This document shows positions 3,113 to 39,207 of a DNA stretch of 64,000 nucleotides, piece by piece (position 1 is the first letter of the stretch; every line of letters starts with the position of its first letter). The position numbers and the translations under genes were made by a program. The notes beneath the pieces were generated by a model. The model had not been told where the DNA came from. It saw only the letters and a program-made list of their open reading frames with translations, and did not search any database. Source of the stretch: an uncultured bacterium (GTDB lineage: Bacteria > Patescibacteriota > Patescibacteriia > CAIQCM01); contig OY970181.1 of NCBI GenBank assembly GCA_963708045.1, positions 131,740 to 195,739 of the forward strand. The letters are read 5' to 3'.

Positions 3113-3403
3113 ATGCTTAGCATTAGATTAACCCGCGTCGGAAAAACCAAAGAGCCTTCATACCGGCTTATTGTTTTAGATAAACGAAAAGACCCATGGG
3201 GCGACTACCTGGAAAACCTCGGCACCGTGAATCGCCGTGGCAAAGAAAAATCATACAAATTGAACGCCGACCGCATTAAATACTGGATTTCCAAAGGCGC
3301 TCAGCCCACTAACCCAGTTTGGAATATGTTGGTTGACCAAAAAATCGTTGTTGGTTCCAAACGCAAGGCGCACACGGGACATAAGGTTGAAGCGGCGAAA
3401 TAA
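3113..3403 (+). CDS. rpsP: 30S ribosomal protein S16
   Basis: MLSIRLTRVGKTKEPSYRLIVLDKRK...: canonical S16 N-terminus. 96 aa. Confidence 0.9.
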   Translation: MLSIRLTRVGKTKEPSYRLIVLDKRKDPWGDYLENLGTVNRRGKEKSYKLNADRIKYWISKGAQPTNPVWNMLVDQKIVVGSKRKAHTGHKVEAAK

Positions 3404-3582: not shown

Positions 3583-3874
3583 GGCGCGCCGGGCTCTTGC
3601 TTTAAAAAAGATGGTTTGCTATATTTGCATCCTCGGCCAAAATCTCTCTCTGAGAGAGAAGGAAGCAACCTGCCGAGATAAAAGGAGGGAGCAAAAGAGA
3701 TAATCTAATTTTAACAACGGATTGTTTGGCGGCGGTCACATTACCCCTCAAAACACTTGAGAAGGAAACGAGCGTAAGGCACGAGGGAAAAAAACCGTAA
3801 GCGCCAGCGCGTGGCTGTCAGTTGTACCAACAACTTTCAGCCGCGCGTATCTATAAAACCGAGTCTGTTCTTTT

Positions 3875-3947
3875 TCGGGGGTAGTTCAATTGGTAGAGCA
3901 CCACTTTTGATAAGTGGCCGTTGTGGGTTCAAGTCCCACCTCCCGAA
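3875..3947 (+). tRNA. tRNA, identity ambiguous (class-I fold; anticodon loop UUUGAUA gives UGA by canonical fold, but the U1-A72 pair is Gln-like)
   Basis: 73-nt cloverleaf: acceptor TCGGGGG/CTCCCGA, D-arm GTTC-AATTGGTA-GAGC, anticodon stem CCACT/AGTGG, T-arm GTGGG-TTCAAGT-CCCAC. Confidence 0.6.
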
Positions 3948-4090
3948 CAATTCTATGTTAGATTTTCCGCCTGTGGCTGAATGACATGGCGCTGGCCAAA
4001 ATTTCAACAATCTTGCTAGGCTTGTTGAGACTAACGCCAGAAAATGCAGGTTCAACTCCTGTCGGGCGGACTAGTTAGTACCTTCTTATA

Positions 4091-4208
4091 GAAGCCGTAG
4101 CTCAATGGTGGAGCAACACGTTTCTGGAGGCGTATGCTTCCAAGGTCAGTAACCAAAAGTTATTGATCTGATTCGTGAAGGTTGTAGGTTCAACTCCTAT
4201 CGGCTTCG
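4091..4208 (+). tRNA. tRNA with about 45-nt insertion in anticodon loop (candidate anticodon UCU, Arg)
   Basis: Perfect 7-bp acceptor GAAGCCG/CGGCTTC, D-arm GCTC-AATGGTG-GAGC, T-arm GTAGG-TTCAACT-CCTAT. Anticodon stem ACACG...CGTGA encloses a 52-nt loop that begins TTTCTGG and holds two internal hairpins. Confidence 0.6.
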
Positions 4209-4234
4209 CAAAACATGACGATTGTTTATTCGTC

Positions 4235-4307
4235 GTCCCCATAGCTCAGATGGAAGAGCATGACCTTGGTAAGGTCAGGGTCACAGGTTCGATTCCTGTT
4301 GGGGACT
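4235..4307 (+). tRNA. tRNA-Thr (GGU)
   Basis: Acceptor GTCCCCA/TGGGGAC, anticodon arm TGACC-TTGGTAA-GGTCA, T-loop TTCGATT. Confidence 0.8.
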
Positions 4308-4328
4308 CAGAACGGTTGGTTCTTTTTA

Positions 4329-4461
4329 GAGGCAGTAGCTCAATTTGGTAGAGCGCCGGAATGTCACATTAAACCAAACTTTTGTAACGTTGGTCACGAG
4401 ATAGTGGGTTCAAGGTTTGTTTTAATGCCGGAGGTTACAGGTCCGACTCCTGTCTGCTTCA
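4329..4461 (+). tRNA. tRNA with about 59-nt insertion in anticodon loop (candidate anticodon GUC, Asp)
   Basis: Acceptor GAGGCAG/CTGCTTC (one G-U pair), D-arm GCTC-AATTTGGTA-GAGC, T-arm ACAGG-TCCGACT-CCTGT. Anticodon stem CCGG(A)...(G)CCGG encloses a 66-nt loop that begins ATGTCAC, close to the E. coli tRNA-Asp loop CTGTCAC. Confidence 0.55.
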
Positions 4462-4643
4462 CAATTTCTCCGCTGTTTGGGAACGCCCAAACTTTTCGCA
4501 ACCCAGGTCTGCTACACGCAACCTGGGTTTTGTGATTTAACGCCCATTGATATATTTCTAAAAATTTGCTATACTAATAGTAACCAGTGCTGGCAGTAGT
4601 CGAACCGGAACTGGTCAAGTACTTGTCATTAACTATAGCTGCT

Positions 4644-4970
4644 ATGGAAATGGAAATGGACCAGCAGTTCGTAGAGTATGTGGTCAAGGGGATCGTTAAT
4701 AACCCTAATGACGTCAGGACAGAAAGAACGGTAGACGAGCGCGGAGTGCTCATCACCCTCTTCATCAATCCGGCGGATATGGGTTATGTGATCGGTCGCC
4801 AAGGCCAGACCGCGCGTTCAATTAGGACACTTCTCCGCATCGTCGGAGCAAAGACCAACGCTCGCGTCAATCTCAAAATCTACGAACCCGAGGAATCCCG
4901 CCGCGCTCATATGTCGGCCGCTGCCGAAGCACCGAGCGAGGACGAGAATCCAATGGATTTAAAAATCTAG
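4644..4970 (+). CDS. khpA: KH-domain RNA-binding protein (KhpA/YlqC-like)
   Basis: ...FVEYVVKGIVNNPNDV...MGYVIGRQGQTARSIRTLL...KI matches the KhpA KH fold. ORF track starts at 4587; start moved to the internal Met cluster. Exact start uncertain. Confidence 0.65.
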   Translation: MEMEMDQQFVEYVVKGIVNNPNDVRTERTVDERGVLITLFINPADMGYVIGRQGQTARSIRTLLRIVGAKTNARVNLKIYEPEESRRAHMSAAAEAPSEDENPMDLKI

Positions 4971-5013: not shown

Positions 5014-5880
5014 TTAAAATTTATTCGTGGCTAAAACGGTTGGATGTTTTTTAATGCCCTCTACATAAAGTCTATGTATCTGCGCCGCGGACAAAGCATC
5101 ATTAAATATCCGCGGCTCATCTATAAATCCGCCAAAAGAAAAACCAGCATTCCCTCCCCATGCACCGCCATAAGGATAAAGCGTACCAATAGCCAAAGGT
5201 ATACTGTTATCTGTTGTTGCCCACGAAGAGATGTTGTGTGTGGCTGTAAGTTTGAGCGAGCCGTCTATGTATATAGAGACAGTTTTTGCAGAATCAACGG
5301 TTGCGGCAACAAATGTCCACTTACCGCTTGGCACAGTGGCGTTTGTAGCGGGTGTATTATAACCCGACACCCCTCCCAGCCCAACATATATTTTTCTGTC
5401 CGCGCCATAACTTAAAGTATAATTATACCCACCATTTCCGTTCCACGGTTTGCTTATTAAAACAGCACCGTTATTTTCTGCGACATCGGGCTTAATCCAA
5501 ATACCTAATGACATATTCCCGCCGCGATATTTAAAACCCGAATAATCATAAGCCTGCACATAATCATTTGATCCATCAAGATAAATTGAATAACCGCTAC
5601 CGCTTGGCGTATCGGTTGACCAAGTTGGACCGTTTAAGAGACTGCCAGTGTGTCCGCTACCCGAAGCATCACTCGCCACTCCTCCCGAGCCTTCGTTAAA
5701 TAACCATATGCCAGCAGGCTCGCCAGCCGTGCGATCAAGATGCGATGCAAACGCCATTCCCGCTGCAATTTTCGCCTTATCCCGAGCGGTTACTAAGGAC
5801 ACCACGGCGATTGATGAAAGAAGACCGACGATGGCAATAACGACGAGAAGTTCAATTAAGGTAAAAGCAGAGCGACGCAT
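5014..5880 (-). CDS. type IV pilin-like protein with C-terminal LamG/concanavalin-A-like domain
   Basis: N-terminal MRRSAFTLIELLVVIAIVGLL prepilin methylation motif with Glu5 and a hydrophobic helix. C-terminal ...IDEPRIFNDALSAAQI... laminin-G-like jellyroll signature. Confidence 0.75.
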   Translation of the reverse strand: MRRSAFTLIELLVVIAIVGLLSSIAVVSLVTARDKAKIAAGMAFASHLDRTAGEPAGIWLFNEGSGGVASDASGSGHTGSLLNGPTWSTDTPSGSGYSIYLDGSNDYVQAYDYSGFKYRGGNMSLGIWIKPDVAENNGAVLISKPWNGNGGYNYTLSYGADRKIYVGLGGVSGYNTPATNATVPSGKWTFVAATVDSAKTVSIYIDGSLKLTATHNISSWATTDNSIPLAIGTLYPYGGAWGGNAGFSFGGFIDEPRIFNDALSAAQIHRLYVEGIKKHPTVLATNKF

Positions 5881-5921
5881 GAATGAATATCTAATTTCTA
5901 ATACTTAATATCTAATCCGAT

Positions 5922-6767
5922 CTATGGAAAAGAGATCTGTCTATTTGTTGACGATGAAATGAGAATTTTGGGGTGCGACAAAACGCTGGCGGCATAATCT
6001 TTTTGTATCGCTTGCGCGGTTAGTGCTTTGGCATAGATCCGGACATTATCAAAATTACCCCAAAAATAATTTGTTGCCACATAACGACCGATCTCCGGCG
6101 CCCCCGTCCCCAAGAACGGACTTGACGGAGAATCGTTCGCGACGAGCGCGCCATCACGGTAAATGCTGCGCTTGTTAGTTGATCGGTTGTAAGTACAAGC
6201 CCAATGATGCCAATTCGTGTCCGTATAGGCAACCGTGTCCAGATCGTTTGAGTAAAAGGCGCAGGTAAAAGCATTCGTCTGCCTGAAACCGACGACCATC
6301 ATAGTGCTGGCACCTACACTTCCCAGCGAAAAGGCGATATCCAATCTATTTATTGCGTTGCGTTTCGCCCAAAAGGAAACCGTGAACGAGTTTGAGGCAA
6401 ACTCGGTGATCGTTCGCGCGGTGGAGGCATATTGGCTTGCGCCGTTCAGGCTAAGTGAACACCCTTTCCCCGATGGCGAATCAGACGACCATTGCGGAGA
6501 ACCGACGGGGGTTCCAATATTTCCACCCCCCGAAGAATCAGCGACGGTTGTGGCGGGAATGCCGACGCCTGTGCAATCGTCAAAATCCCACTGGCCTAAA
6601 ATTTCATCTCCAGCTCCATCAAGAACACTTCTTTCAAAAGATTGCCCGGCCGCAATTTTTGCTTTATCCCGCGCACTGCCAAGCGACACCACCGCGATTG
6701 ACGAAAGAAGGCCGACGATGGCAATGACGACGAGAAGTTCAATTAAGGTGAAGGCGCGACGGGTCAT
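5922..6767 (-). CDS. type IV pilin-like protein with LamG-like domain
   Basis: MTRRAFTLIELLVVIAIVGLLSSIAVVSLGSARDKAKIAAG...FDNVRIYAKALTAQAI. Paralog of 5014-5880. Confidence 0.75.
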   Translation of the reverse strand: MTRRAFTLIELLVVIAIVGLLSSIAVVSLGSARDKAKIAAGQSFERSVLDGAGDEILGQWDFDDCTGVGIPATTVADSSGGGNIGTPVGSPQWSSDSPSGKGCSLSLNGASQYASTARTITEFASNSFTVSFWAKRNAINRLDIAFSLGSVGASTMMVVGFRQTNAFTCAFYSNDLDTVAYTDTNWHHWACTYNRSTNKRSIYRDGALVANDSPSSPFLGTGAPEIGRYVATNYFWGNFDNVRIYAKALTAQAIQKDYAASVLSHPKILISSSTNRQISFP

Positions 6768-6946: not shown

Positions 6947-7609
6947 ATGAAGATAGACTTTGTTTCAATTTTTCCGGAAATGTTTGGGACTTATTTTAAT
7001 GAGTCCATTATGAAACGCGCGGCGGAAAAGCGTCTGATTAAAGTTAAGGCGCACGATTTGCGTAAGTGGGCATCGGGCAAGCACCACAAAGTAGACGATC
7101 GCCCATTTGGTGGCGGCCCCGGAATGGTGATGATGGCGGAGCCGTTTGCGAAAGCGGTTAAAGAGCTAAAAGTTAAAAGTTTAAAGTTAAAAGTTCGTGT
7201 TATCCTAATGTCTGCTTCGGGAAAAACCTTCACTCATAAAGATGCAGTACGGCTTGCCAAGTACAAACACTTAATCTTCCTCTGCCCGCGCTACGAAGGC
7301 GTGGATGCGCGCGTGGAAAAATTTGTTGATGAAAAAATTTCTATTGGCGACTATGTTTTAACCGGCGGCGAACTCCCCGCCATGGTCGTGGCTGACGCAG
7401 TCGTGCGTCATATTCCCGGCGTCCTTGGCAAAGCCGAATCGCTCACCGAAGAATCGCATACAATAGAAGGTGTTACTGAATATCCGCAATACACGCGGCC
7501 GGAAGTTTTTGGCAAACAAAGAGTGCCTGCGGTTTTGCTTTCAGGCGATCATGCGAAGATAGCCGCGTGGAGAAAGAAAAAGATGGGGCAACGAATACCT
7601 AATATCTAA
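6947..7609 (+). CDS. trmD: tRNA (guanine37-N1)-methyltransferase
   Basis: IDFVSIFPEMF, DDRPFGGGPGMVM and SIGDYVLTGGELPAMV are hallmark TrmD (SPOUT) motifs. Confidence 0.9.
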   Translation: MKIDFVSIFPEMFGTYFNESIMKRAAEKRLIKVKAHDLRKWASGKHHKVDDRPFGGGPGMVMMAEPFAKAVKELKVKSLKLKVRVILMSASGKTFTHKDAVRLAKYKHLIFLCPRYEGVDARVEKFVDEKISIGDYVLTGGELPAMVVADAVVRHIPGVLGKAESLTEESHTIEGVTEYPQYTRPEVFGKQRVPAVLLSGDHAKIAAWRKKKMGQRIPNI

Positions 7610-8287: not shown

Positions 8288-8675
8288 AAAATCAGCTATT
8301 TTTACCATCCTAAATGATAGTAACACCAAACGCCTGTTTTTTCAATTTATCCACAGTACCTCCCCACCCCTTATGGCTATTGACGGATTATTCTAAATCG
8401 TTTATTATTGCCACATACTAATCACAACTTCTTTTCGCTTGTTTTTAGAAGAAAAAAGAGTTGAACCTAAAATCGCTTGGTTCCACTCTTTTTTCTTCCT
8501 GAAACGTTTTGGGAAGGGACATTGACAACTCAATCGTGAACCAAAAATTTCTTTCTTTGAAAGAAGAGAGAGATCCCCGGATAATAAACATTCAAAAACA
8601 ATATAGTCATTAAACACATAAGTCTGATGACTCTGGTTGAGTCCACTTCTCCTTAGGGAGATAGGGATTTCTTCT

Positions 8676-10179
<1,504 letters not shown>

Positions 10180-10420: not shown

Positions 10421-10894
10421 ATGCACATAAAAACGCCGAGATATTTAGGGGAACAACTACGTTCTGACCGCAAACGCCAAGGAATGACGCAAGGCGAGTT
10501 GGCCGACGAATTGAATGCGAAACCCAATCGCCCGCAGAATCCTTTTACCCACCAACCCTATAATTTCAATAGGAGCTGGGTGGCCAAGCTTGAATCAGGC
10601 ACACTAGTTCGCGAACTTAATGTGGGGGTGCGGCGGTATCTTGCCGAAGTACTAAATGCAAACGAAGTCCTTTACGTACAACTTCCCACGCATGCAACTT
10701 CAGAATCGCAGAAGGTTATCACCGACGATGACAATGTCTTACCCCTGATCAAACTCATCGCCGCTCAGCCCAAACTAGCCCACCTTTCCTTCAAGAAATT
10801 TTGCGAGCTACGCTATGCGGACAACGTCTGCTCAAGAAGCGGGATATCAATTTTCAATCCGTTTGAGACCGAGACTGATCCACTGAGCAAGTAA
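10421..10894 (+). CDS. XRE-family helix-turn-helix transcriptional regulator
   Basis: N-terminal LRSDRKRQGMTQGELADELNA...VAKLESG is a Cro/C1-type HTH. C-terminal domain unknown. Confidence 0.55.
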   Translation: MHIKTPRYLGEQLRSDRKRQGMTQGELADELNAKPNRPQNPFTHQPYNFNRSWVAKLESGTLVRELNVGVRRYLAEVLNANEVLYVQLPTHATSESQKVITDDDNVLPLIKLIAAQPKLAHLSFKKFCELRYADNVCSRSGISIFNPFETETDPLSK

Positions 10895-11987: not shown

Positions 11988-13103
11988 TTAGCCTGTCCAA
12001 TAAAAGGCCATAATACTTAAATCTAATAAATCAACTTTGCCGTCGGCGTTAAGATCGGGCCCAGTTGGCGGGTTTGGGCGTCCGTACCAAAACGCAATAA
12101 CCGAGAAGTCAACCAAATTAATCCGCAGGTCGGCATTAAAATCGCCTTTGTCTTTAAGAATGGCTGACGGTTTTGTAACAATACTTTTATCGCTTACTTT
12201 GAATGTATGTGGATCGCTTAGAACACTAATGTCACCGCCGGAAAGAGCTTTGGTCTGCACAGTGTGATCACCCTTTAAAAGCGCATCGGTAGCCATCTTG
12301 TAAAGATAAACGCCGTCGGCGCTTGCTTTAACTTTAGTAACGAACGGATTATCAGAATTAACCGTGATTTCCACTTCGGCGCTCACTGCGGCTTGGCCAA
12401 AAATAATAATATTTTCTCCTTGCTTAACCTCGGACTTGTCCGTGCTCACGGTCGGCGGCAAAAAAATGCCACTAATCTGCGTCATTGACCCGGCGGTTGT
12501 ATAAATAGGAAAAGTGAATAATGTTGAACGCGCCCCTTGTTTGTCTTCGCCGTAAACGGAAAAAGTGTAATTACCCGACGAAAGACCGGTATATGTAATT
12601 GAAAATTTTGCATCCGACCCGGCAATGGTTGTTGCGGCTAATATTCCATCCTTAAGTAAACTAACTTTGCTTAGCGGATAGGCGCGGCCAGAAACAATCA
12701 CGCCGGTCGTAACGATTGTTAAAGGATACGTTGCGCTACCGCCTCCGCCACCACCGCCGCCTCCCCCTCCTCCACCACCACTGCTTGCAACACAACTTAA
12801 GGTATCAAAAGTACAATCGGCTTTGCAGGCCAACGTGCCGCCGCCGCCAAAACCGCGCGAACCGCAGGTCGCACCGAACAAATCAGTTCCATCACACTGT
12901 TCGTTAATTTCTTTTATTCCATTACCACAAAGATTAAGAATTTGAATTTGAAAATTTGCCGAACCAGCCGCTTTTGTTGTGAGCGGCTGAACTAAAAACA
13001 ATACCGCGCCAAAAACTAGCGCCGCCACGGTTGTGGCGGCAAACATTTTCGTAAACCCCTTTTGTAATCTAGTTTGCTCGTTCATTAAACTAAATGACGA
13101 CAC
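11988..13103 (-). CDS. secreted protein with Cys-rich N-domain, poly-Gly linker and C-terminal dockerin-like repeats
   Basis: TM/signal near N-terminus, G14 tract, and two D-x-N-x-D-G-x-V-D-L-L-D-like segments (DFNADLRINLVDFSVIAFW; DLNADGKVDLLDLSIMAFYW). Confidence 0.5.
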   Translation of the reverse strand: MSSFSLMNEQTRLQKGFTKMFAATTVAALVFGAVLFLVQPLTTKAAGSANFQIQILNLCGNGIKEINEQCDGTDLFGATCGSRGFGGGGTLACKADCTFDTLSCVASSGGGGGGGGGGGGGGSATYPLTIVTTGVIVSGRAYPLSKVSLLKDGILAATTIAGSDAKFSITYTGLSSGNYTFSVYGEDKQGARSTLFTFPIYTTAGSMTQISGIFLPPTVSTDKSEVKQGENIIIFGQAAVSAEVEITVNSDNPFVTKVKASADGVYLYKMATDALLKGDHTVQTKALSGGDISVLSDPHTFKVSDKSIVTKPSAILKDKGDFNADLRINLVDFSVIAFWYGRPNPPTGPDLNADGKVDLLDLSIMAFYWTG

Positions 13104-13107
13104 CGAT

Positions 13108-16100
13108 TTAATTAGCTGTAATTGAAAGCACCATATTAACGGAATAGCTACCCACTGGCTGTTCAGCCGGAATTTTCTGGCTAATAGCTACGTCCCTGAG
13201 TGTCCAGTCGCCAACATTATTTGCGGCAGCGGATGCCGAAAGTAAAGTAATATTATTGGTCACGCCTTCACTAAATGCCGCCGCCCCACCCTTAGAAATA
13301 TTTGCCGTCGTGCAACCACTGCACCCACCAACAGCCAAAGTCGCGACCGAAGGATCAATCGTCATCTGGCCACCGAGCGAATCAGTATCCCCGCCGTCGG
13401 CACACCCCGCACTCGTTGAATCGTTGAAATCATAATTTACTGTTCCACCATTCCAATAGTCCGTTGGCGCTTGCGCCGCAAGCGTTAATGTCCAACCGCC
13501 GGCAACACCAGTGTTGTTTACATAGATCTGCTCTGATGATGAACCAAAACTGCCGGTAACATTTTGACAAGAAAAATTAAAATTTGTTGAGCTCATCGCC
13601 ATACTCGGATTAGCGACCGGCGCATAGCTTGCATTAACAATGTCGGCGGTTAAAGAGCCGCCCGACGGATTTAATTCGTCATTGTCCGCGTTCATCGCTG
13701 ACTCAATATTCGCCCAGGATGTTTCAGCATTATGAACGTGCCAAAATGTGAAGCTAACCGTTTGACCCGGAGCGACCGAAGACCAGGTTTTTTCAAATCC
13801 GGTCTGGTCGGCTGTCTGAGTTCCGTGAGAAGCCGTTATTTGAATTGGCCACTCAGCATAAGGAGCGGTTGTCCTACCCAAAAACGCCTCGACGGCAAAT
13901 ATTTGGTAATCGGGGAGATTGTTCTTATCCCAAATCATTCCCATATTGATGAATGTCACCTTATCGTAAGCCGTTTGCCAAAATTTTGACCAGCCAGAAG
14001 GAGAAACCCTTTGCTCCATGATGACGTCGTTAGAAGGGTCGTTGGCAAATCTACCAGCATCATTTGCTGCCCTGTCTGTTCCGTGCCACTGTTCACGTTC
14101 CCAGACCATCGGATATTTATGAGTAGAGCTGCCACCATTATAAAAATCATATGTATTCTTTATATATCTTTTGCCAGAATAATAATTCTGTGTTCTTGTC
14201 GCTGTGATACCATTGTCCAACTGCTGAGCCCAACCTCCAACAACTCCACTAACTGCCGTATTATCGGAGTGCTGAACAATCGTAAAACCGGTATTGCTTT
14301 CGGCCGTTATCCAACTAGCATTTTCATTCGGACTCCACTTTATATCATGTTGATATGGATTAGCTGAGCCCGAAGTATCAGCTCTTATTATGTCATCAAC
14401 ATGAACAGCGACTCTTTCCATACAGTCGGTAGACTGGTCGGCTCCTCCGCCAACTGGGTGAGCCCGAGATTCGGCTTGTAAACCAGCTTGCTCACATTCA
14501 TTTATTGAAGAACAAGCTAAATTGTTATCGGTTGTTGAAGTTGGTTTTGGATAAATAAATGTAGATAAATACTGATTAGCAATATACAAACCATTTGAAC
14601 CCCAGCGCTGGCCCATGTCAAACGTTTGAGTCCAGTTATATCTTGTCGCAAAAAGGTCGGTATCGGTATCAAAAGCGATATCAACATCCGTTGAAACCGT
14701 TCCTGTAGTAGCCATCTGCGGGAGTGAAGCGAATTGAATGTAAAGCGTATGCGAGGAAGTCTCCCACCACCATGCGTTGACGCCAGTGGACTGAGCCGAC
14801 CCCGGAGAGACAGATGCCCCGTTTACGGTTATAGCAAAATTAGTCGGAGAAGAAGTGATCGGATGAATTGGAACCGCCACGGCAATATTCGTACCTGTTC
14901 CGCTTTTCATTCCAAACCCGAAATCGCTTATGGTTGTATGCCAGTGGTCAGTTGACCAGATAGAATTAAAATCCGTATAATTAGCCGGGTTTTGAACCGC
15001 GTCCATTGAAGTTCTTTTAACAGTCATCACAATAGTAAAGGTACTTGCGCTGCTCGTATAATCTATAGAAGGAAAACCAGCGTTATTATCCAACTGCACA
15101 ACAACACTAAAGGAACCGTTATAAGTCTTTGGGTCATCACAACCCATACAAATATTGGAACCGGGATAAATAACCCCTTCAAAACGACTATTGCCGGCGT
15201 TCCATGTCATCGGAGTAGAAAATCCTTGCCCAGCGATCGTGGTGACTTGGGCGCGGGCGTAAGGATAATTAGCATAGGTCAAACCGCCGGTTAGTGTGCC
15301 GTAAACTGGAACCGCCCCCGCCCATCCGTCGGTCGTTTTGCCCAAAGAACTGGCGATGCCGGGTACCACGGGAGCCGGATTTAGAGCAACGGCAAAAGCA
15401 TGCTTGACTGTGGTACCGGTCGTTGAGCAGGTCGTATCAATATTTCCGGTCGCACCCGAACCAGTCCACGTCATACTATCAATCGTCCTTGCAAAATCGG
15501 AAGCAGTTATCCAGTAATCGTTATGCTCAACCCAATCAGTGGTAGGAACTGATGGTTTTGTAAAGTTACGAGTTGTATTACTTGAATAGAAGCTAGCGAA
15601 ATTTAAAAGCACCGAACCAGCGGCCGATACGTTCATACTGGCCGCCCTAACCGTTGTATTACTGGTAATATATTCGGTATTTGAATAAGTATCTATGGGG
15701 TTTGCGGTGTTAAAACCCCCACGGAAAGTTGCAACGGTTATGGCCGTACTTCCAGAAGAAGCAAAACTCCAAGTGTAAGAAGCCCCTTCTCCCGAAGCCA
15801 ATTTCCAATAAAGCATTTGATGATAGGTTGTAGAATACTGGTGCTGGGCCAACAAAGTCCACCCGGTTGGAACCGAATCAACCGCTCCGTTATTGTTGCG
15901 CATAATCAAAGTAAACATGATATCGTTGTTCGCCGTATTGGTCGGTTTGTTAACCACGGCGTTGAACGGGGTGGTTTGGGATGCGGCATTATAGTGAGCA
16001 ACGTTTATAAAAGAGGTTGCCGCCATAGCCTCATGAATTCTTAATTCTTCCGGCAAGTTGCGCAAAGAAGAAAAATTATCAACAACGTTCGGATCATTTT

Positions 16101-16251
16101 CATTTTGAGCAAGCCATAATTTATCAACGATGTTACGTGTGTTAATGTAGGAATCTATCGCCGAAGAAAACAAATAATAAGGAACATTGGAAAAAATGAC
16201 CCCGAAAATGACCAGCGACACCACTAAAAATTTAAGAATTCTTGTTTTCAT
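13108..16251 (-). CDS. large S/T/N-rich cell-surface protein with WxL-like C-terminal domain
   Basis: Signal peptide. C-terminal about 190 aa are homologous to the whole of ORF 18474-19154 and carry two W-T-L motifs (GGWTLTLAAQAP; GDWTLRDVAISQ). Confidence 0.6.
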   Translation of the reverse strand: MKTRILKFLVVSLVIFGVIFSNVPYYLFSSAIDSYINTRNIVDKLWLAQNENDPNVVDNFSSLRNLPEELRIHEAMAATSFINVAHYNAASQTTPFNAVVNKPTNTANNDIMFTLIMRNNNGAVDSVPTGWTLLAQHQYSTTYHQMLYWKLASGEGASYTWSFASSGSTAITVATFRGGFNTANPIDTYSNTEYITSNTTVRAASMNVSAAGSVLLNFASFYSSNTTRNFTKPSVPTTDWVEHNDYWITASDFARTIDSMTWTGSGATGNIDTTCSTTGTTVKHAFAVALNPAPVVPGIASSLGKTTDGWAGAVPVYGTLTGGLTYANYPYARAQVTTIAGQGFSTPMTWNAGNSRFEGVIYPGSNICMGCDDPKTYNGSFSVVVQLDNNAGFPSIDYTSSASTFTIVMTVKRTSMDAVQNPANYTDFNSIWSTDHWHTTISDFGFGMKSGTGTNIAVAVPIHPITSSPTNFAITVNGASVSPGSAQSTGVNAWWWETSSHTLYIQFASLPQMATTGTVSTDVDIAFDTDTDLFATRYNWTQTFDMGQRWGSNGLYIANQYLSTFIYPKPTSTTDNNLACSSINECEQAGLQAESRAHPVGGGADQSTDCMERVAVHVDDIIRADTSGSANPYQHDIKWSPNENASWITAESNTGFTIVQHSDNTAVSGVVGGWAQQLDNGITATRTQNYYSGKRYIKNTYDFYNGGSSTHKYPMVWEREQWHGTDRAANDAGRFANDPSNDVIMEQRVSPSGWSKFWQTAYDKVTFINMGMIWDKNNLPDYQIFAVEAFLGRTTAPYAEWPIQITASHGTQTADQTGFEKTWSSVAPGQTVSFTFWHVHNAETSWANIESAMNADNDELNPSGGSLTADIVNASYAPVANPSMAMSSTNFNFSCQNVTGSFGSSSEQIYVNNTGVAGGWTLTLAAQAPTDYWNGGTVNYDFNDSTSAGCADGGDTDSLGGQMTIDPSVATLAVGGCSGCTTANISKGGAAAFSEGVTNNITLLSASAAANNVGDWTLRDVAISQKIPAEQPVGSYSVNMVLSITAN

Positions 16252-19279: not shown

Positions 19280-19849
19280 TTAATTTTGCCAACTTGCTCC
19301 GCCCGGCGTCCAAACCGCCCAGCGATAAGCGCCACGAATTGTGGCACCCCACGGCGCAGGATCGGCAAAAGGATCGGTAAGCGACAGCGTTCCTTCTGGC
19401 GTACAGGCGGCAACTATTTTATAATCAATGCCATCAGATTTGTACGCGTAACAACTCCACGATGGCGCACTGGTGCATTCGCCACGAGCCGATGTTGGAT
19501 TAACTTTATTTTCATTTGGATCGTGCGGAAGAACAGCCAAATAAGTTGGCGCCAGATCGGGAATCCAACCACCCGAACCAGTGTCACTTTTTGCCGTCCA
19601 GTTTCCTCCTTCGTTGCATATTCCCCAAAAAGCCGAGCCCGTCAATGGGTACCCAGCATGATCCGCATAATATAACTCCAATGCCTTAGCAATTTGTATA
19701 AGATTAGCCTTGCGCTGAGTATTTCGCGCGTTCATTCTTACCGAACTCAAAGACACAACCGCAATCATAGAAAGCAGTCCAATAATCGCGATCACGACAA
19801 GGAGTTCAACTAGAGTAAAGGCGCGACGGGGCATGACGGATAACATCAA
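19280..19849 (-). CDS. type IV pilin-like protein
   Basis: MPRRAFTLVELLVVIAIIGLLSMIAVVSL prepilin N-terminus. About 185 aa. Confidence 0.75.
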   Translation of the reverse strand: MMLSVMPRRAFTLVELLVVIAIIGLLSMIAVVSLSSVRMNARNTQRKANLIQIAKALELYYADHAGYPLTGSAFWGICNEGGNWTAKSDTGSGGWIPDLAPTYLAVLPHDPNENKVNPTSARGECTSAPSWSCYAYKSDGIDYKIVAACTPEGTLSLTDPFADPAPWGATIRGAYRWAVWTPGGASWQN

Positions 19850-19853
19850 ATGA

Positions 19854-20654
19854 CTAATGTTGCGTGTCTAATGTCGACGACGAAGCAAGAATTTGCGAAT
19901 ACGAAGACGATTCTTCGGCGTAGATTTTTTTAATTTCAGAAGCAGTTAGTGAGCGGTTAAAGATTCTAACGCTATCTATAAGGCCGCTAAAAAATGTAGC
20001 TCCGGCATATATTCCTATGCCGGCGCCAGAATAATTGGCATTATTCAGAGCGGACACAGTCCCCGACCCTGCTAAACCTCCGTCCAAATATACTGAATAA
20101 GAAGTTCCACTTTGGTCAATGACCAGCTGGTGCCAAGCATTTGTGCTTACGCTCCTAGAAACCGTCCCCACCGAAAGATTAATGTCCGGGTACCACGAAA
20201 TCGCGATATTGCTCACGCGTATCAGCGTCGACCTGTACGAAAATATAGGACGAGTTGCGGCGTCTGCGGGCTTGAACCAAAGAGAATACACGAGCGACGA
20301 CGCGGTTGTGTTCACATACGGTATGCTCACATAAGCCGTTGAACCATTGAACGACAGCGAACAGCCCTTGCCGCTCGGAGTATCGGTTGACCACACTGCT
20401 GCTCCGCCGACCAAGGTTCCATTCAACCCATTCCCACTGGTATCATTTGCCGTCGTACCGGAACATTCATCAAAATCCCATTGCGCGAAAATATCATCAC
20501 CTACAACGTGTTGAACCGATTGCTCATAAGAGATACCTTTCGCAAGCCGCGCCTTTTCCCTAGCCGTTGTTAGCGAAACAACCGCGATTGAAGAGAGTAG
20601 CCCAATAATCGCGATCACAACAAGAAGTTCAATTAGGGTAAAAGCACGTTTCAT
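19854..20654 (-). CDS. type IV pilin-like protein with LamG-like domain
   Basis: MKRAFTLIELLVVIAIIGLLSSIAVVSLTTAREKARLA...IDSVRIFNRSLTASEIKKIY. Confidence 0.75.
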   Translation of the reverse strand: MKRAFTLIELLVVIAIIGLLSSIAVVSLTTAREKARLAKGISYEQSVQHVVGDDIFAQWDFDECSGTTANDTSGNGLNGTLVGGAAVWSTDTPSGKGCSLSFNGSTAYVSIPYVNTTASSLVYSLWFKPADAATRPIFSYRSTLIRVSNIAISWYPDINLSVGTVSRSVSTNAWHQLVIDQSGTSYSVYLDGGLAGSGTVSALNNANYSGAGIGIYAGATFFSGLIDSVRIFNRSLTASEIKKIYAEESSSYSQILASSSTLDTQH

Positions 20655-20672
20655 TAACTTTTTTAAAAAAAA

Positions 20673-21491
20673 TTATTTATTAACCGCTGTTAACTTGCCC
20701 GGAAGTTCGGCCAAATACATTTGCCTAACATCCATTGCAGTCAATGCGTTACCAAAAAAATGAACAGAGTCAATAAACCCGACAAGCCCTTGGCTAAGAT
20801 AGCCTATCGCCACAAACCCACTAGCATTTAAATCGTTGGCACTTAAGGCGCTTATATCCGCGGAACCGCGCAGTTTGCTATCCAAATAAACATTCATTAT
20901 GTTAGCGCTTCTGTCTATAGACAATGCCAAAAAATGCCATACGCCATCATTATATTTTCCAGATGCATAAGCAACAATGCCCGTATTATGCAATACGCAG
21001 TCCACTGTACCAGATGATATACTTCCAATTTCACACATCATTCCATTGGCGTTACCGGCGTCGGATTTTCGCAACATTACTCCACGATCAGTTTGTGAAG
21101 TTTTAAACCAAAAAGTTCTGGTCGCGTTGCCGGTGCGGACATCCAAACTGTCGTTATCTGAAATTCTGACATAGCCCGTGGCGGTTGAAGCAAGCGACGT
21201 TCCACTTCCGCTCGGAGTATCCGTTGACCAAGTTGGTCCACCAACCAAAGTGCCGCTGTTCCCGTAATTAGAAGAATCAACAGTGGCCGTGCCCGACCCT
21301 TCGTCCAAGTCCCATTGCCCAACCAATGAATCCCCCTCGGCGCGATCAATTTGCGCAGCAAATTGTTTTGCCGCCGCAAGCCGCGCCTTTTCCCTAGCCG
21401 TTGTTAGCGAAACAACCGCGATTGTTGAAAGCAATCCGATAACTGCGATTACGACAAGGAGTTCAATTAGGGTAAAGGCGCGACGGTTCAT
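20673..21491 (-). CDS. type IV pilin-like protein with LamG-like domain
   Basis: MNRRAFTLIELLVVIAVIGLLSTIAVVSLTTAREKARLAAA...IDSVHFFGNALTAMDVRQMY. Confidence 0.75.
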   Translation of the reverse strand: MNRRAFTLIELLVVIAVIGLLSTIAVVSLTTAREKARLAAAKQFAAQIDRAEGDSLVGQWDLDEGSGTATVDSSNYGNSGTLVGGPTWSTDTPSGSGTSLASTATGYVRISDNDSLDVRTGNATRTFWFKTSQTDRGVMLRKSDAGNANGMMCEIGSISSGTVDCVLHNTGIVAYASGKYNDGVWHFLALSIDRSANIMNVYLDSKLRGSADISALSANDLNASGFVAIGYLSQGLVGFIDSVHFFGNALTAMDVRQMYLAELPGKLTAVNK

Positions 21492-21630
21492 ATTGATACA
21501 GTATCATTTTTGTTATGGTATATAAAATTGGCGCTCTTCGATTTTAATAGAGTTATTTGAAGAGATTCAGCGTAAAATCACAATCAAATTTTTAGTGTCT
21601 AAAAATTTTTTTAAAACTAACTGTAATATA

Positions 21631-22089
21631 TTACGTCCCGTTCGGGGAAATACAATAATTATAAACCGCACCGCCTGAGCAACCAGAATAATCATAGGCG
21701 TTTCCGGTTGCTTTTTCCATATTTGCACATAGAATATAGCGCGTTTTATTATCTATATTCTGGTATAAATAATCACCAATTTGGTTATGTTGAGTCGGGT
21801 CTAACGGAGTACGAGCCAAAAACGATACAATGTCCGACTGAAAACCCGCCCCGAGACCGCCCGCGGGGTTGGAAATGAACGTGCACCAGCCGGCGGAGTT
21901 GCGGGGCAAATAACTGTTGACATCGGCAAATAACTCAATCGCCTGCGAAATTTGCCGCAGGTCGGCCATTCGCTTGGCATCGCGAGCTTTTACTCGCGAA
22001 GCACTCAAAGATACGACCGCGATTGTTGAAAGCAGTCCGATAATCGCGATTACGACCAGAAGTTCAATTAGGGTAAAAGCCTGTTTCAT
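21631..22089 (-). CDS. type IV pilin-like protein (small)
   Basis: MKQAFTLIELLVVIAIIGLLSTIAVVSL. 152 aa. Confidence 0.75.
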   Translation of the reverse strand: MKQAFTLIELLVVIAIIGLLSTIAVVSLSASRVKARDAKRMADLRQISQAIELFADVNSYLPRNSAGWCTFISNPAGGLGAGFQSDIVSFLARTPLDPTQHNQIGDYLYQNIDNKTRYILCANMEKATGNAYDYSGCSGGAVYNYCISPNGT

Positions 22090-22205
22090 TTTATAAATAT
22101 TAAATACACCAGTCGTGCAGATTGATTTTATTATATCACTATCCCCGCAATAAAACTCAAAAAAATCTCCTCATTTTGTTGAGGTTTCGCCTCGACAAAA
22201 ATCTG

Positions 22206-22760
22206 TTAATTTCCCTGATGATCAACGTAGAGCATTGGACTCCTCGCGGGCGGGACGGTCGGACTAAACGGGTCGCAAAAATAATAACTGCCGTCTAAAT
22301 AAACATTATCCCTATAACCGCGCGATGCGCATCGGTCCGGATCAGATGTGTTTTCCAAATTAGCGATCAAATCATACTTACTACCGGATGCATTACTATA
22401 GTAAGCATAAGTAAAATTTCCTTGAAATGTCGGATCCGTAATATTCTTATTTATCGGGTCAGCGGGCAGAACAGTAATATAGGTTTGAAGCATTGTTTGC
22501 AAACTTAACCACCGCGCATTAGAGCAGGTGTCCAAATCGGTCGTGGCGCTGCAGGCCCAAGGAGATGCTACAACGGGAAAATGACCATTGTCGTCATAAT
22601 AAAGATCCAGAGCGAGTTTTATTTGCCGTAAATCAGACTTCCTTTTCACATCACGTGCCGCTATCCTGCTTTTATCCATTACAACAACCGCAATCGTTGA
22701 AAGGAGGCCGATGATCGCGATCACGACTAAGAGTTCAATTAAGGTAAAAGCGCGCTTCAT
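22206..22760 (-). CDS. type IV pilin-like protein (small)
   Basis: MKRAFTLIELLVVIAIIGLLSTIAVVV. 184 aa. Upstream region paralogous to that of 21631-22089. Confidence 0.75.
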   Translation of the reverse strand: MKRAFTLIELLVVIAIIGLLSTIAVVVMDKSRIAARDVKRKSDLRQIKLALDLYYDDNGHFPVVASPWACSATTDLDTCSNARWLSLQTMLQTYITVLPADPINKNITDPTFQGNFTYAYYSNASGSKYDLIANLENTSDPDRCASRGYRDNVYLDGSYYFCDPFSPTVPPARSPMLYVDHQGN

Positions 22761-23644: not shown

Positions 23645-24586
23645 TCACCTCCTTTCTCGTCCAGATCTAAATATTCTTAGCATTTTTAGCATTTTTTGTC
23701 TACCTGCGCTACCCCCTGTACTAGACGGGTACATCGGTAACAAGTGCTCGTGCTTGTAGATGAAATTGATCGGTGACATATACCCCAGGGTTTGGTGCGG
23801 CCGACGGAAGTTGTATTCGATCAGCCACTCAGTGAGCCGTCGGTTGAATTCGGCGCAGTCGTCGGTCATGTTCCCGAGCTGAACAAACTCCTCTTGTAGG
23901 GTTCGGTTGAACCGTTCGTTCGTCGCGTTGTCCTTGGGTGTTTTGATCCGCGAATGATATTGGGGAATATTTAGAGCAAGACACGCGTCAGCAAACCGTC
24001 CCTTGAACTCGCTGCCGTTGTCATGCCCAACGTTCTCTATCTTCCCATCAACGAGATGATGGAGGCGATAAAGAAAATCGCGAGAATTTGATGAACTCTT
24101 TGACGTATACATCCGGGCAAAAGCTAGTTTAGAGTGTTTGTCAATGGCGGTGAAGATGAAACGCTTCTTGCTTTTCCAATAAATAACGACGGTATCGAGG
24201 CAGAGTAGAAACCCCGATCGTTTCTTGGTCTTGAGGTCGGTGATCTTCTTGCGTTTAACACTATTCTTTCGTTTTTTGTTGATCCTGGCTTGTTTTATTG
24301 GGTGGTAATAGAGACGGTACTTCTCAATAGTCTTCTGCACCTTCCACTCAGAAATGATCTCGTGATATTCTGTGTTATAGAGAGTGGCGATCTTCGCTTT
24401 TCCATAGCGGATATGCGTCCTCTTCAACGAAATGATTCGTTCAGCTTGGAGCGGGGTAATGGCCCGCTCTTTGCGTTTCTTGGGGGTACGATCAAGTTCT
24501 TCAAGGGTGCGGAGGTTGGCATCGTTAAAGCGTTTCTTCCATTTCCAAAAGGTCTTGGGGGCGATGCCAAAATGACGAGCCGTCAA
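23645..24586 (-). CDS. IS481-family DDE transposase (integrase core domain), main reading frame
   Basis: DTVVIYW...FTAIDKHSKLAFARMY...GHDNGSEFKG...NERFNRTLQEE...RRPHQTLGYMSP are rve-domain D-D-E blocks. N-terminal HTH partly in another frame. Confidence 0.75.
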   Translation of the reverse strand: MTARHFGIAPKTFWKWKKRFNDANLRTLEELDRTPKKRKERAITPLQAERIISLKRTHIRYGKAKIATLYNTEYHEIISEWKVQKTIEKYRLYYHPIKQARINKKRKNSVKRKKITDLKTKKRSGFLLCLDTVVIYWKSKKRFIFTAIDKHSKLAFARMYTSKSSSNSRDFLYRLHHLVDGKIENVGHDNGSEFKGRFADACLALNIPQYHSRIKTPKDNATNERFNRTLQEEFVQLGNMTDDCAEFNRRLTEWLIEYNFRRPHQTLGYMSPINFIYKHEHLLPMYPSSTGGSAGRQKMLKMLRIFRSGRERR

Positions 24587-25545: not shown

Positions 25546-27774
25546 TCAGTAACCGGGTACGCTAATGAATGTTGCTGCCGTGAATCTAACCGCTGCCTGC
25601 CAATCCCCTCCTCCAACCACCAAATTAATCCGGTCAGGCGTCATACCACTATTGACCATGACCGAGAGATATTCACTGCCACTACTATTACAAGAGATTG
25701 GATAGTACGCCATCTCTGTTCCTGCGGTGATCTCCAGATAAGGTTGATTATAGCAAGTGATTGACGAGGTGGCGTAGTCAAACCATACCATCAACCATGC
25801 ACGGGTAAGAAACACGACTTGCAGACTATCAAGCAATTCCGTTCCAGTCACCGAAGAAGCTTGCATCCGCGGATCTTTCGGACGAGCGCCGATCAGACTT
25901 GGACAACCGTAAGTGCCAGGTGTTGCATCGCAGATCGTGTATGAACCGAAACAATTTCCGCCTGAACACGTGCCGTTGTTATTGCACGCCGAATTGCAGG
26001 CACCGCAACTGGCCGGATCGGTCATTAAGCTCTTACAACCGTTTGTGCAAGCGGTTTGCGTCGGATCTGCACAGATACAACTTGTCGTTGTCCCAGAAGT
26101 GATGCAGTTGCTACCGGCCGGGCAGGCGTTCCCGCACGACCCACAATTGCTATTACTGCTCTTTGTGTCCGTGCAGACACCGCAATCGGTGAGGCCACCG
26201 ATACACTTGCAGCTGCCAGAAACGCAGGCTTGGTCTCCTCGGCACGGCTTGCCACAGCCGCCACAGTTGGCGGTATCAACTTTCGTATCGTGGCATTGAT
26301 TATCGTTGCACTTTGTTGTTCCACCTTCGCAGACAATTCCACAAAGGCTGTTTGAGCAGATTGTCCCGTTTGGACACGGTTTGTTGCAGCCGCCGCAGTG
26401 GGCGGTGCTATTTTTAGTGTCCGCGCAGACGCCGCAATCAGTGAGGCCACCGATGCACTCGCAACTGCCGGAAACACAAGCTTGATCTGTGCGACATATC
26501 TTGCCACAAACGCCACAGTTGGCGCTTTCGGCTTGCAGGTTGTGACACTGCTCATCGCTACACTTCGTCGTTCCGGGTCCACAAACGGTTTGACACGAGA
26601 TACCGGACATTGGGTGATTTGGGTCGTAGACACAGGTCTTTCCCGGAGCGCACGTTTTTCCGCACTCCCCGCAGTTTGCGGGGTCGTGAAGGTAGTCCAC
26701 GCACGCATTTCCGCACAGCATCCTTGCAATCGGACATTGACATGTGCCGGCCGTGCATGATTGCGCGGCGAGACAAGCGTTTCCGCAAGTCCCACAATGC
26801 GTGTTGCTAGTCTGCGTATTAACGCAGGCGCCGCCACAGTCAACGAGGCCGTTTGCGCAGCCGCAAACGCCTGCGACACAATCTTCGTCCGCGCGGCAAG
26901 AGGTACTACACCCCCCGCAAAAACGCGGATCGTTTTTTGTGTCACGATAATTGCCATCGCAGAGAATTATGCCGTCGCCTGGAAGCGACTCGCAAACCCC
27001 CGCCGAGCAGTATTCGTTTAGAGCGCAAGTGCGGCCACAGGAGCCGCAGTGCGCCGGATTAAAGCGCACATCAATGCACGCTTCCGAACAAAGCAACAAA
27101 CTTCCCGGACAAGACGGCGCGTCGGGTAAAATAGATACATCGATAGAGGCATCTACGGCCACGAACTGAGCATCGGGAGGAGCGACGATTTGCGCGTCAG
27201 GAACTAAAATTGCGACTTCGGGTGCCGTGTCTTTTGGTTGAATAATGCCGACCTCGGTTTGGGAAATCAGCACCGTGTCACGAGACAAAACAACATCGGC
27301 AATTGCCGACGCGCCGTCGGTAACGACATCAATCACTATTTTTACGTCTTCCGACAACACCGCGTCGCGAGCAAGTGGTGTTTCTCTTCCCGCTTCAGGC
27401 ATCATTGCGACCGGTGAGTCACTCACGATGCCGGCGTCTTTTGTTGCTGCATCATTTTGAGCCACGGAAGCGTCGGGGATGATAGCCGCGTCGGTGTTGC
27501 AAGACAAACCGCTTAGACTGAAAATCCCGTTCACGCAGGTATACCTCGTGCAGTTGATGACGAAGGTTGCGCCCGAACCATAGGTGCTCGTTGAACCATT
27601 ATTAACGTTGGTCAAAACACAAACTTTGGCATCGGATAGCGCGTCTTTTGGCACAACCGGTGTTGCGACGGCCGCGTCAGTTAGCTTTGCTTTTCCACTA
27701 CCTCCGCACGCCCCGCCCAAGATTAGGCAAGCCGCGCTACTAACGAAAAACGAACAGATAATTCTTTGCCTCAT
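25546..27774 (-). CDS. secreted cysteine-rich repeat (lipo)protein
   Basis: Signal with lipobox-like LILGGAC. At least 10 tandem about 40-aa repeats of pattern C-x-G-G-L-T-D-C-G-V-C-x-D-T-K-x-x-x-x-H/N-C-G-x-C-G-x-x-C. SD GAAAGAGG before the 27774 ATG. Confidence 0.6.
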   Translation of the reverse strand: MRQRIICSFFVSSAACLILGGACGGSGKAKLTDAAVATPVVPKDALSDAKVCVLTNVNNGSTSTYGSGATFVINCTRYTCVNGIFSLSGLSCNTDAAIIPDASVAQNDAATKDAGIVSDSPVAMMPEAGRETPLARDAVLSEDVKIVIDVVTDGASAIADVVLSRDTVLISQTEVGIIQPKDTAPEVAILVPDAQIVAPPDAQFVAVDASIDVSILPDAPSCPGSLLLCSEACIDVRFNPAHCGSCGRTCALNEYCSAGVCESLPGDGIILCDGNYRDTKNDPRFCGGCSTSCRADEDCVAGVCGCANGLVDCGGACVNTQTSNTHCGTCGNACLAAQSCTAGTCQCPIARMLCGNACVDYLHDPANCGECGKTCAPGKTCVYDPNHPMSGISCQTVCGPGTTKCSDEQCHNLQAESANCGVCGKICRTDQACVSGSCECIGGLTDCGVCADTKNSTAHCGGCNKPCPNGTICSNSLCGIVCEGGTTKCNDNQCHDTKVDTANCGGCGKPCRGDQACVSGSCKCIGGLTDCGVCTDTKSSNSNCGSCGNACPAGSNCITSGTTTSCICADPTQTACTNGCKSLMTDPASCGACNSACNNNGTCSGGNCFGSYTICDATPGTYGCPSLIGARPKDPRMQASSVTGTELLDSLQVVFLTRAWLMVWFDYATSSITCYNQPYLEITAGTEMAYYPISCNSSGSEYLSVMVNSGMTPDRINLVVGGGDWQAAVRFTAATFISVPGY

Positions 27775-27957
27775 GCTACTACCTCTTTCTTTGTCAGAGA
27801 ACATTTATTTGGCTATTTTTAGCCAAATCAAAAACACGTCTTTCACGGCTTAAACATAGACCCGCACCTTAAGGATGTCAAGCAACCAAAAAAGAAATTT
27901 AAAATTCTTAACTATTATTAGCAACTGTGTTAAGGTAGCGGCCGAGAGGAGAAAACC

Positions 27958-30072: not shown

Positions 30073-30138
30073 AAAAGCGACTAATTTGTCGAAGGTTTCG
30101 CCTCGATGGTCGAGGCGAAACCTCAACAAAAAACACCG

Positions 30139-37882: not shown

Positions 37883-37892
37883 GACGGAATAT

Positions 37893-39205: not shown

Positions 39206-39207
39206 AA

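Follow-up and report, generated by a model that had tools for sequence, protein, structure and literature searches.

What does a bacterium do with a transfer RNA (tRNA) gene whose anticodon loop is interrupted by tens of extra nucleotides? The question is raised by a stretch of 64,000 nucleotides from an uncultured member of the Patescibacteriota (GenBank assembly GCA_963708045.1, contig OY970181.1, positions 131,740 to 195,739 of the forward strand), which we call the window and whose numbering we use unless another locus is named. Five tRNA genes are clustered there on the plus strand, between rpsP (ribosomal protein S16, 3113-3403) and khpA (4644-4970), and three of them carry an insert between the two strands of the anticodon stem. 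Are these inserts cut out, have they disabled their genes, or do they stay in the RNA? We tentatively lean towards the first answer, at somewhat less than an even chance: judged from the sequence, the inserts may be real intervening sequences that are removed by a route still to be identified. They match none of the intron classes with which they were compared.

Anatomy of the interrupted tRNA genes

We label the interrupted genes A (3967-4070), B (4091-4208) and C (4329-4461), and use X for the interrupted tRNA of a relative, locus L047. The tRNA genes of the cluster and their inserts are as follows.

3875-3948, plus strand: first tRNA of the cluster, uninterrupted (Rfam 57.4 bits; ARAGORN 'Ser(tga)', 74 nt)
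3967-4070, plus strand: interrupted tRNA A (Rfam 41.5 bits; C1-G72, A73, no G18G19; stem CUGGC/GCCAG)
3997-4035, plus strand: insert of A (from the fold; 36% GC)
4091-4208, plus strand: interrupted tRNA B (Rfam 52.0 bits; G73; stem (A)CACG/CGUG(A))
4121-4173, plus strand: insert of B (from the fold and splice enumeration; 40% GC)
4235-4308, plus strand: tRNA-Thr(GGU), canonical (Rfam 66.6 bits)
4329-4461, plus strand: interrupted tRNA C (Rfam 47.0 bits; G3:U70, A73, T-loop UCCGACU; stem CCGG/CCGG)
4360-4427, plus strand: insert of C (from the fold; 35% GC)

The full window was scanned with the covariance models of Rfam 15 at their gathering thresholds, and the region 3800-4600 was scanned a second time under a more permissive setting (E <= 10). 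B and C match the tRNA model RF00005 in the scan of the whole window (E 2.8e-08 and 6.7e-07) and A does so in the permissive one (E 2.7e-07); in this local scan the E-values of the three range from 2.7e-07 to 3.5e-10. Together with X (49.4 bits) they exceed the gathering score of 29 bits, and all four matches cover model positions 1-71. A, B and C are genuine tRNA genes, with tRNA homology far above chance. A preliminary description of this DNA had reported two tRNA-like genes with expanded anticodon loops in a cluster of four. Both genes recur as Rfam matches at exactly 4091-4208 and 4329-4461, while the cluster has grown to five members, the third interrupted gene (A) having been overlooked.

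Standard gene finding passes these genes by: ARAGORN in its default bacterial mode detects none of A, B and C. With introns allowed, a check that the preliminary description had proposed, it detects all three, places the introns differently from the Rfam blocks and calls A a Ser-GCU tRNA, B a Gln-CUG tRNA with a 44-nt intron and C a 'stop' tRNA (UUA) with a 59-nt intron.

According to the Rfam alignment, the sole anomaly of A-C is an unaligned block between the strands of the anticodon stem. The stem CUGGC/GCCAG of A encloses 39 nt, 32 more than a 7-nt loop; that of B (ACACG/CGUGA, four pairs and an A.A mismatch at 27:43) encloses 53 nt, of which 46 are extra; and CCGG/CCGG in C encloses 68 nt, 59 of them extra. 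The range of 45-60 extra nucleotides given earlier is thus narrowed to 46 and 59 for B and C and has to be extended downwards for A, and the 4-bp anticodon stem described for B and C is found in both. An encoded 5-bp stem with a 7-nt loop is not present in A-C, as the stems of B and C have only four standard pairs.

The remainder of each gene is that of a regular tRNA, as had been described for B and C. In A, B, C and X alike, the acceptor (7), D (4) and T (5) arms consist of 16 standard pairs, and nearly all of the invariant bases U8, A14, G53, C56, A58 and C61 are retained. The loss of helices or invariant bases outside the lesion that marks a tRNA pseudogene is not seen: the pairs are intact in all four and the G18G19 dinucleotide is absent in A only. 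The position of the insert, between the anticodon-stem strands, is the same in 4/4 genes (P ~1.3e-4 for random insertion), and composition changes at its borders, from 54-62% GC in the exons to 35-40% in the inserts, with 46% in the window at large. As a further peculiarity, T-loops of the form UCCGACU or UCCGAGU, with C55 in place of the near-universal U55, occur in the T-arm of C (4437-4453), in L047 (2634-2650) and in the tRNA-Phe of the window (29037-29111). Because that tRNA-Phe is intact, C55 is a trait of the lineage and not a defect of interrupted tRNAs.

The inserts are folded in different ways. The minimum-free-energy structure of the B insert consists of two adjacent hairpins (4125-4142 and 4143-4169) closed by UC/GA, the same two that had been pointed out in the preliminary description, and none of 200 shuffled sequences is as stable (z = -5.1). 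The sequence UCUG stands at both of its ends (4123-4126 and 4167-4170). In A, a 29-nt hairpin (4002-4030) sits within a symmetric 5x5 internal loop (CAAAA/CUAAC), with a stability against shuffles of z -2.7 alone and -4.1 with the stem. The C insert begins with a 7-nt bulge on the 5' side, AAUGUCA (U33-GUC-A37), followed by a long hairpin (4367-4427) that opens with a helix of 13 positions, 12 pairs and one C.U mismatch, and whose 3' strand leads without a gap into the 3' half of the anticodon stem.

Does the 5' side of the expanded loop still read like an anticodon loop? The two readings proposed earlier, UUUCUGG in B and (A)AUGUCAC in C, are present in the sequence: the 5' half of the loop is U32-U33-UCU-G37, then G, in B and A32-U33-GUC-A37 in C. 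A has CAAAAU and no U33. Register is kept in three of the four genes: B, C and, in one frame, X have U33 together with a purine at position 37 (R37), correctly spaced from the 5' stem strand.

None of the large intron classes accounts for these blocks. Bacterial tRNAs host group I introns in Leu-UAA, fMet and Arg-CCU and, in Patescibacteria, at 35/36 of Asn and Asp tRNAs, with lengths of 184-894 bp (PMC13011429). The inserts resemble them in the phylum of the host and in making the host tRNA invisible to default annotation tools; group I introns, however, are ribozymes of 184-894 nt with a P1-P9 core that RF00028 recognizes, whereas the inserts add 32-59 nt to their loops. Neither RF00028 nor any other Rfam intron, ribozyme or small RNA family matches, whether the gathering threshold or, within 3800-4600, a limit of E <= 10 is applied, and the same scan does detect a group I intron in the 16S rRNA gene of locus L012. 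Group I introns are thereby excluded, with 39-68 enclosed nucleotides against a core of ~180 nt or more, as had been argued from length in the preliminary description. Group II introns are excluded by size, as they need several hundred nucleotides, and by the lack of an Rfam match. A weak match to the Plastid-ycf2 family in the window is a side effect of tRNA similarity.

Interrupted tRNAs in relatives, metagenomes and phages

Downstream of the cluster, khpA is followed by pilin-like genes, trmD (6947-7609) and a bacterial 16S rRNA gene (8670-10177, 1387 bits), and the nearest relatives of the window's TrmD and S16 proteins are from Patescibacteria and Parcubacteria. A search for S16 homologues gave ten relatives, with a tRNA cluster in L047 only. 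In this locus, whose S16 is 95% identical, a tight cluster runs Thr(GGU)-initiator Met-X-Asn(GUU). X (2550-2658) has a perfect body with 46 nt between CUGG and CCAG, and lies between the initiator Met (fMet) and Asn tRNAs with spacers of 13-36 nt. Only tRNA-Thr is common to the window and L047 (80% identity over 123 nt, L047 2372-2487). The habitat of the organism, or of its relative, is represented by the metagenomes ERR15459707, ERR12035931 and SRR30280145.

How widespread is the trait? As a control, eight other Patescibacteria loci (142 kb) were inspected, and their 15 tRNAs, 70-85 nt in length, are all uninterrupted, compared with 4 interrupted of 13 in the window and L047 (Fisher p = 0.035). 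The inserts are specific to this lineage and not a general property of the candidate phyla radiation (CPR). A TrmD-based scan of GTDB genomes returned 36 loci, at identities of 59% or less, with no syntenic tRNA cluster, and a contig reached through a search for the DUF5672 neighbour stops just short of the tRNAs. An exact search of IMG/VR with the 5' halves of B and C gave 0 matches, BLAST against phage genomes matched uninterrupted tRNAs only, and BLAST of the exon halves against all the loci retrieved gave nothing close. A tRNA-Thr anchor pattern for finding orthologues proved unspecific and was dropped.

Similar designs are abundant outside the lineage. We scanned for a pattern of D-arm, 48-78 nt, variable loop and T-arm in IMG/VR, and for a narrower form of it in metagenomes, with at least 120 matches each. 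At least 120 phage contigs (L054-L173, IMG/VR) carry tRNAs with inserts of 30-60 nt, and Rfam scores the pattern matches at 38-55 bits as tRNA and as no other family. Three types recur among the phages. In the first, noted also for Lak phages, the insert is a nested, permuted tRNA-like element, T-arm then D-arm (e.g. L054, L061, L096). In the second, a hairpin and a conserved ACAGCAA interrupt the 5' anticodon-stem strand (28/29 to 30/31), and a complete anticodon stem-loop comes after them (e.g. L073, L083, L089). The third comprises tRNA-Tyr(GUA)-like genes with the insert at 37/38 (e.g. L074, L104). The tRNAs of Lak megaphages have been reported to carry 'enigmatic introns' (PMC6784885). 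Like A-C, the Lak and IMG/VR genes are otherwise normal tRNAs with 30-60-nt inserts in the anticodon arm that bacterial gene finders miss; unlike them, the phage types have permuted or ACAGCAA inserts, which are absent from the window, and here the genes lie in a cellular CPR genome at the core rpsP-khpA locus. The searchable literature has no account of a cellular bacterium whose tRNA genes carry short inserts of a non-group-I kind, and the phage case is the nearest.

The closest likeness to C comes from metagenomes, as a family of at least 13 distinct sequences with a hairpin after position 37 (L184, L198, L205, L207, L220, L227, L244, L246, L257, L268, L274, L293 and others). Their stem includes a 32:38 pair and is followed by a bulge of 5-6 nt, U33-anticodon-R37, and by a closed hairpin that directly abuts the 3' stem strand; the bulge is often UUCGA, and GUA is recurrent near the 3' junction. 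A majority combine Arg anticodons with a GGAUAGAGC D-loop (A20) that is typical of tRNA-Arg, which argues that the triplet in the bulge is a real anticodon. UCG is an unusual Arg anticodon for the bacteria of this family. C resembles L184, L207, L220, L227 and L246 in the U33-anticodon-R37 bulge before a flush, closed hairpin, and L189 reads CCGG-U-GUC-A as C does. C differs in its 4-bp stem and 7-nt bulge, where the family has the 32:38 pair, a bulge of 5-6 nt, the Arg-type D-loop and GUA. A does not fit the family, and B, with U33-UCU-G37 followed by a two-hairpin junction, differs from it as well.

The contigs of this family are bacterial and Alphaproteobacteria-like. The gene of L220 adjoins a maeB gene whose product is 93% identical to Rhodospirillales proteins, and elsewhere the neighbours include CBASS-like (SMODS with a 4TM effector), TIR, resolvase and NYN genes, as is typical of island borders at tRNA genes. 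Ten metagenomic contigs (L175, L183, L187, L235, L238, L256, L276, L277, L279 and L282) hold a different arrangement, a normal tRNA and then, ~10-20 nt on, a short element made up solely of an acceptor-like stem and a T-arm (e.g. GGUGCGGGG...AAGGUUGCAGGUUCGAGUCCUGC...CGCACC). These elements appear to be D-arm-less or minihelix-like relatives of tRNA.

Removal, disablement or retention of the inserts

How might the inserts be removed? The downstream end of the cluster is marked by two features.

4475-4529, plus strand: two GC-rich hairpins with U runs, 3' of C (sequence; fold -31.3 kcal/mol)
4547-4575, plus strand: sigma-70-like promoter TTGATA-17-TATACT with TG upstream, ahead of khpA (10/12 consensus matches)

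The first hairpin (4475-4492) is followed by TTTT and the second (4500-4529) by TTTGTG, and together they are probably the terminator of the cluster. A consensus terminator scan did not call them, as loop or T-run fall under its thresholds. The putative promoter suggests that khpA is transcribed separately. Given the hairpins after C and this promoter before khpA, the five tRNAs look like a single transcription unit.

Such a unit would end at the hairpins, and the precursors would be released from it by RNase P and RNase Z, for which the acceptor/T minihelix suffices. A hypothetical endonuclease and RNA ligase would then remove the inserts. For B and C the likely site would be the canonical 37/38 junction, with U33-UCU-G37 and U33-GUC-A37 on the 5' side. 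The design of C, with the anticodon in a 5' bulge and the hairpin stacked on the 3' stem strand, seems to recur in the metagenomic bacterial tRNAs. What makes us lean towards removal is the combination of intact tRNA bodies, the positional specificity and compositional break of the inserts, the retained 5' halves of the loop, the location of X among essential tRNAs and the abundance of analogues.

A number of observations weigh against this. The first concerns the spliced products. We enumerated the single deletions that restore a tRNA with one base at position 26 and a variable loop of 4-5 nt, the normal frame: B gives only Arg-UCU with G37, C gives GUC, GUA or UUA, and neither A nor X has a canonical solution. 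In a relaxed frame, perfect stems are obtained for B as Gln-CUG (break at 30/31), X as a class II Ser-GCU, A as Leu-GAG and C as Leu-CAA. However, 20-54% of shuffled inserts have canonical solutions too, and those of B and C and of the relaxed frame are no commoner, so the presence or absence of a solution is no evidence for or against splicing. We have therefore rejected the assignment of isotypes by this enumeration.

The identities of the products are a second difficulty. As Arg-UCU, B would have G37, where A37 is expected for codons that start with A, and lacks the A20 expected in tRNA-Arg. As Asp-GUC, C has an A31.G39 mismatch, which its GUA and UUA solutions share, A73 instead of the discriminator G73, and G3:U70. 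G3:U70 and A73 are the anticodon-independent identity elements of tRNA-Ala, yet the sequence of C, with this alanine mark, yields no NGC anticodon. A shares C1-G72 and A73 with the window's own tRNA-Pro and has no NGG. The two assignments of the preliminary description, Arg-UCU for B and Asp-GUC for C, are accordingly shaky.

Other points on the same side concern the inserts, the enzymes and the locus. The inserts of C (z -1.4) and X are no more stable than shuffles, and the four have neither a common sequence nor a common junction structure. Among 54 scanned open reading frames of the window, which is ~5% of a genome of ~1 Mb, Pfam reveals no splicing endonuclease, RtcB or RNA ligase. Relatives whose S16 is 80-94% identical keep the neighbourhood from rpsP to khpA without tRNAs in it, so the cluster occupies a variable spot, and the relatives retrieved offered no gene orthologous to A, B or C, interrupted or not. 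Its first, uninterrupted member (3875-3948) is aberrant as well, with the loop UUUGAUA, the anticodon UGA (Ser), U37, a short variable loop, U1-A72 and A73; its acceptor stem is similar to that of the L047 tRNA-Asn, and it possibly represents a Gln(UUG)-like tRNA whose loop is irregular.

Are the genes, then, recently disabled? They could be spare copies in a cluster of fast turnover that received site-specific insertions in the anticodon loop and no longer decode. The source might have been DNA able to form hairpins, what remained of a deleted group I intron (such introns are common in the anticodon loops of Patescibacteria tRNAs) or a scar of recombination. We regard this as possible although rather unlikely. 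Many of the difficulties just listed would follow: A and X without a canonical solution and the others at chance frequency, the mismatch between body and anticodon in C (G3:U70 with GUC), A (Pro-like, no NGG) and B (UCU, G37, no A20), the missing G18G19 of A, the U37 of the first tRNA, and a locus that varies among close relatives and shares only tRNA-Thr with L047. The two UCUG copies that flank the B insert resemble a target-site duplication. Against it, there is no decay: the helices outside the anticodon arm are intact in all four, which score 41-52 bits despite the insertion penalty, while all four inserts fall at the same few positions (P ~1e-4 if random). A blastn-short search of the A-C inserts against the window found self matches only, other matches being of 15 nt or less. 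With no further copy in the 64 kb, we rejected a miniature repeated insertion element, and the inserts do not behave as a spreading one. X is again hard to reconcile with disablement, placed as it is between essential tRNAs, and CPR genomes normally have single-copy tRNAs and little junk, which weighs against spare copies.

The RNAs might instead be permanently expanded, that is, processed and perhaps aminoacylated without ever decoding. Such RNAs would serve as amino-acid donors outside the ribosome (for cell-wall or lipid aminoacylation), as decoys for tRNA-targeting nucleases or as signals for RNase P and RNase Z. With their acceptor, T and D parts intact, the genes keep everything required by these two nucleases, the CCA-adding enzyme and alanyl-tRNA synthetase; G3:U70 with A73 in C is the alanine identity set found in transfer-messenger RNA (tmRNA), which is suggestive; and A and B have inserts that fold strongly. 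In addition, no machinery that removes such inserts is known from bacteria (PMC13011429). The known RNAs of related shape offer partial parallels. tmRNA and YrlA likewise mimic the acceptor and T-arm and replace the anticodon arm, whereas YrlA has its closed end at the acceptor and its open end on the anticodon side, opposite to the present genes. Neither candidate held: ARAGORN finds no tmRNA in the window, Rfam gives no tmRNA match and there is no tag reading frame or pseudoknot; and the YrlA matches, which at 29.9 and 18.9 bits fall far short of the gathering score of 69, draw their signal from neighbouring tRNA parts. We consider permanent expansion unlikely, since neither sequence nor shape of the insert is conserved among the four genes, the U33-NNN-R37 kept in B, C and X would be purposeless, a tRNA-like RNA that is open-ended with an enlarged anticodon arm has no precedent, the YrlA matches being weak, and no partner protein was identified.

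Bacterial rRNA genes provide another comparison. Their intervening sequences, which RNase III excises without religation, are likewise AU-rich hairpins at helix tips and vary among close relatives; an rRNA functions when fragmented, whereas a tRNA cut in the anticodon loop needs religation to decode. A gene for a 23S-rRNA-intervening-sequence protein (PF05635) is found at 35280-35642. Two other genes of the window encode an NYN-domain nuclease (36475-36993) and an RNase H-like DUF458 protein (30106-30609), the latter between tRNA-Pro and tRNA-Gly. Another NYN gene directly follows the interrupted tRNA of L224, and over the window and the metagenomic contigs NYN nucleases and interrupted tRNAs show no consistent association.

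Could the inserts be introns of the archaeal and eukaryal type, cut at a bulge-helix-bulge by an EndA-like enzyme and joined by RtcB, with machinery that the CPR lineage acquired? RtcB-type ligases are widespread in bacteria, which suits this idea, and protein-spliced introns are similarly tens of nucleotides long and AU-rich, with the anticodon in the 5' exon and the canonical 37/38 position that B and C would permit. The motif itself is missing. We scanned for a 4-bp helix between two 3-nt bulges, a check that had been suggested from the outset, and found nothing beyond chance in the strict (0-6 motifs, against shuffle means of 1.2-4.3) or relaxed (15-58, against 16-48) form, nor any motif placed so as to leave a tRNA of 72-77 nt. 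The 3' junction of C lies inside a continuous helix, no tRNA-intron endonuclease (EndA) domain occurs among the 54 reading frames scanned, and the host is a bacterium. Bulge-helix-bulge tRNA introns have not been reported in bacteria (PMC13011429), and we hold such an origin to be very improbable.

That the inserts are an artefact of assembly or chimerism, absent from the organism, is hardly credible: two metagenomic contigs with an identical S16 do stop ~20 nt past the gene, a sign that assemblies tend to break near this region, but three independent inserts lie cleanly within three genes, a contig from a different sample has 1126 nt ahead of an identical KhpA, just as the window does, and L047, an independent assembly, has an insert in another tRNA.

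If removal does take place, it may extend beyond this lineage. Bacteria and phages could possess a third way to remove short, hairpin-type tRNA inserts, besides group I/II and bulge-helix-bulge splicing, with the CPR tRNAs described here, the tRNA-Arg genes with a hairpin after 37 and the recurrent phage insert types as its substrates. We offer this broader proposal as a speculative one, and doubtful as it stands.

The wider window and the meaning of the inserts

The window has further unusual features. Its 16S rRNA gene (1508 nt, no insertion) is followed by a helix-turn-helix gene (10421-10894) and not by a 23S gene, and the tRNA-Ile(GAU) at 24976 lies 15 kb from the 16S gene, next to an rve-type integrase gene (23645-24586); from this the rRNA genes appear to be unlinked. 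Insertions do occur in the 16S genes of other Patescibacteria, namely L010 (11514-13410, 1897 nt) and L012 (11216-14513, split at 11993-12299 by a group I intron). Type IV pilin-like genes with the N-terminal methylation motif stand in three batteries (5014-6767, 19280-22760 and 37076-40341), many of them fused to lectin-like Laminin_G_3 domains, and one battery separates khpA from trmD, usually a compact operon. Very large reading frames of 1047-1420 aa are found at 13108-16251 (no Pfam match), 40912-44808, 44843-48115 and 57137-61399, and 25546-27804 encodes a 752-aa protein of STIG1-like cysteine-rich repeats.

What would the inserts mean for the organism? The sizes to be expected are 104, 118 and 133 nt for the precursors of A, B and C and ~72-76 nt for the spliced products. 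If the inserts stay in the RNA, they would define RNAs of a new type, shaped like tRNAs, processed and possibly charged yet kept out of decoding, one of them with the mark for alanine. If they are removed, a bacterial pair of endonuclease and ligase, or a small RNA activity, would await discovery. In either case the default bacterial tRNA finders miss A-C, and small genomes such as those of the CPR may have been misjudged as being without tRNAs.

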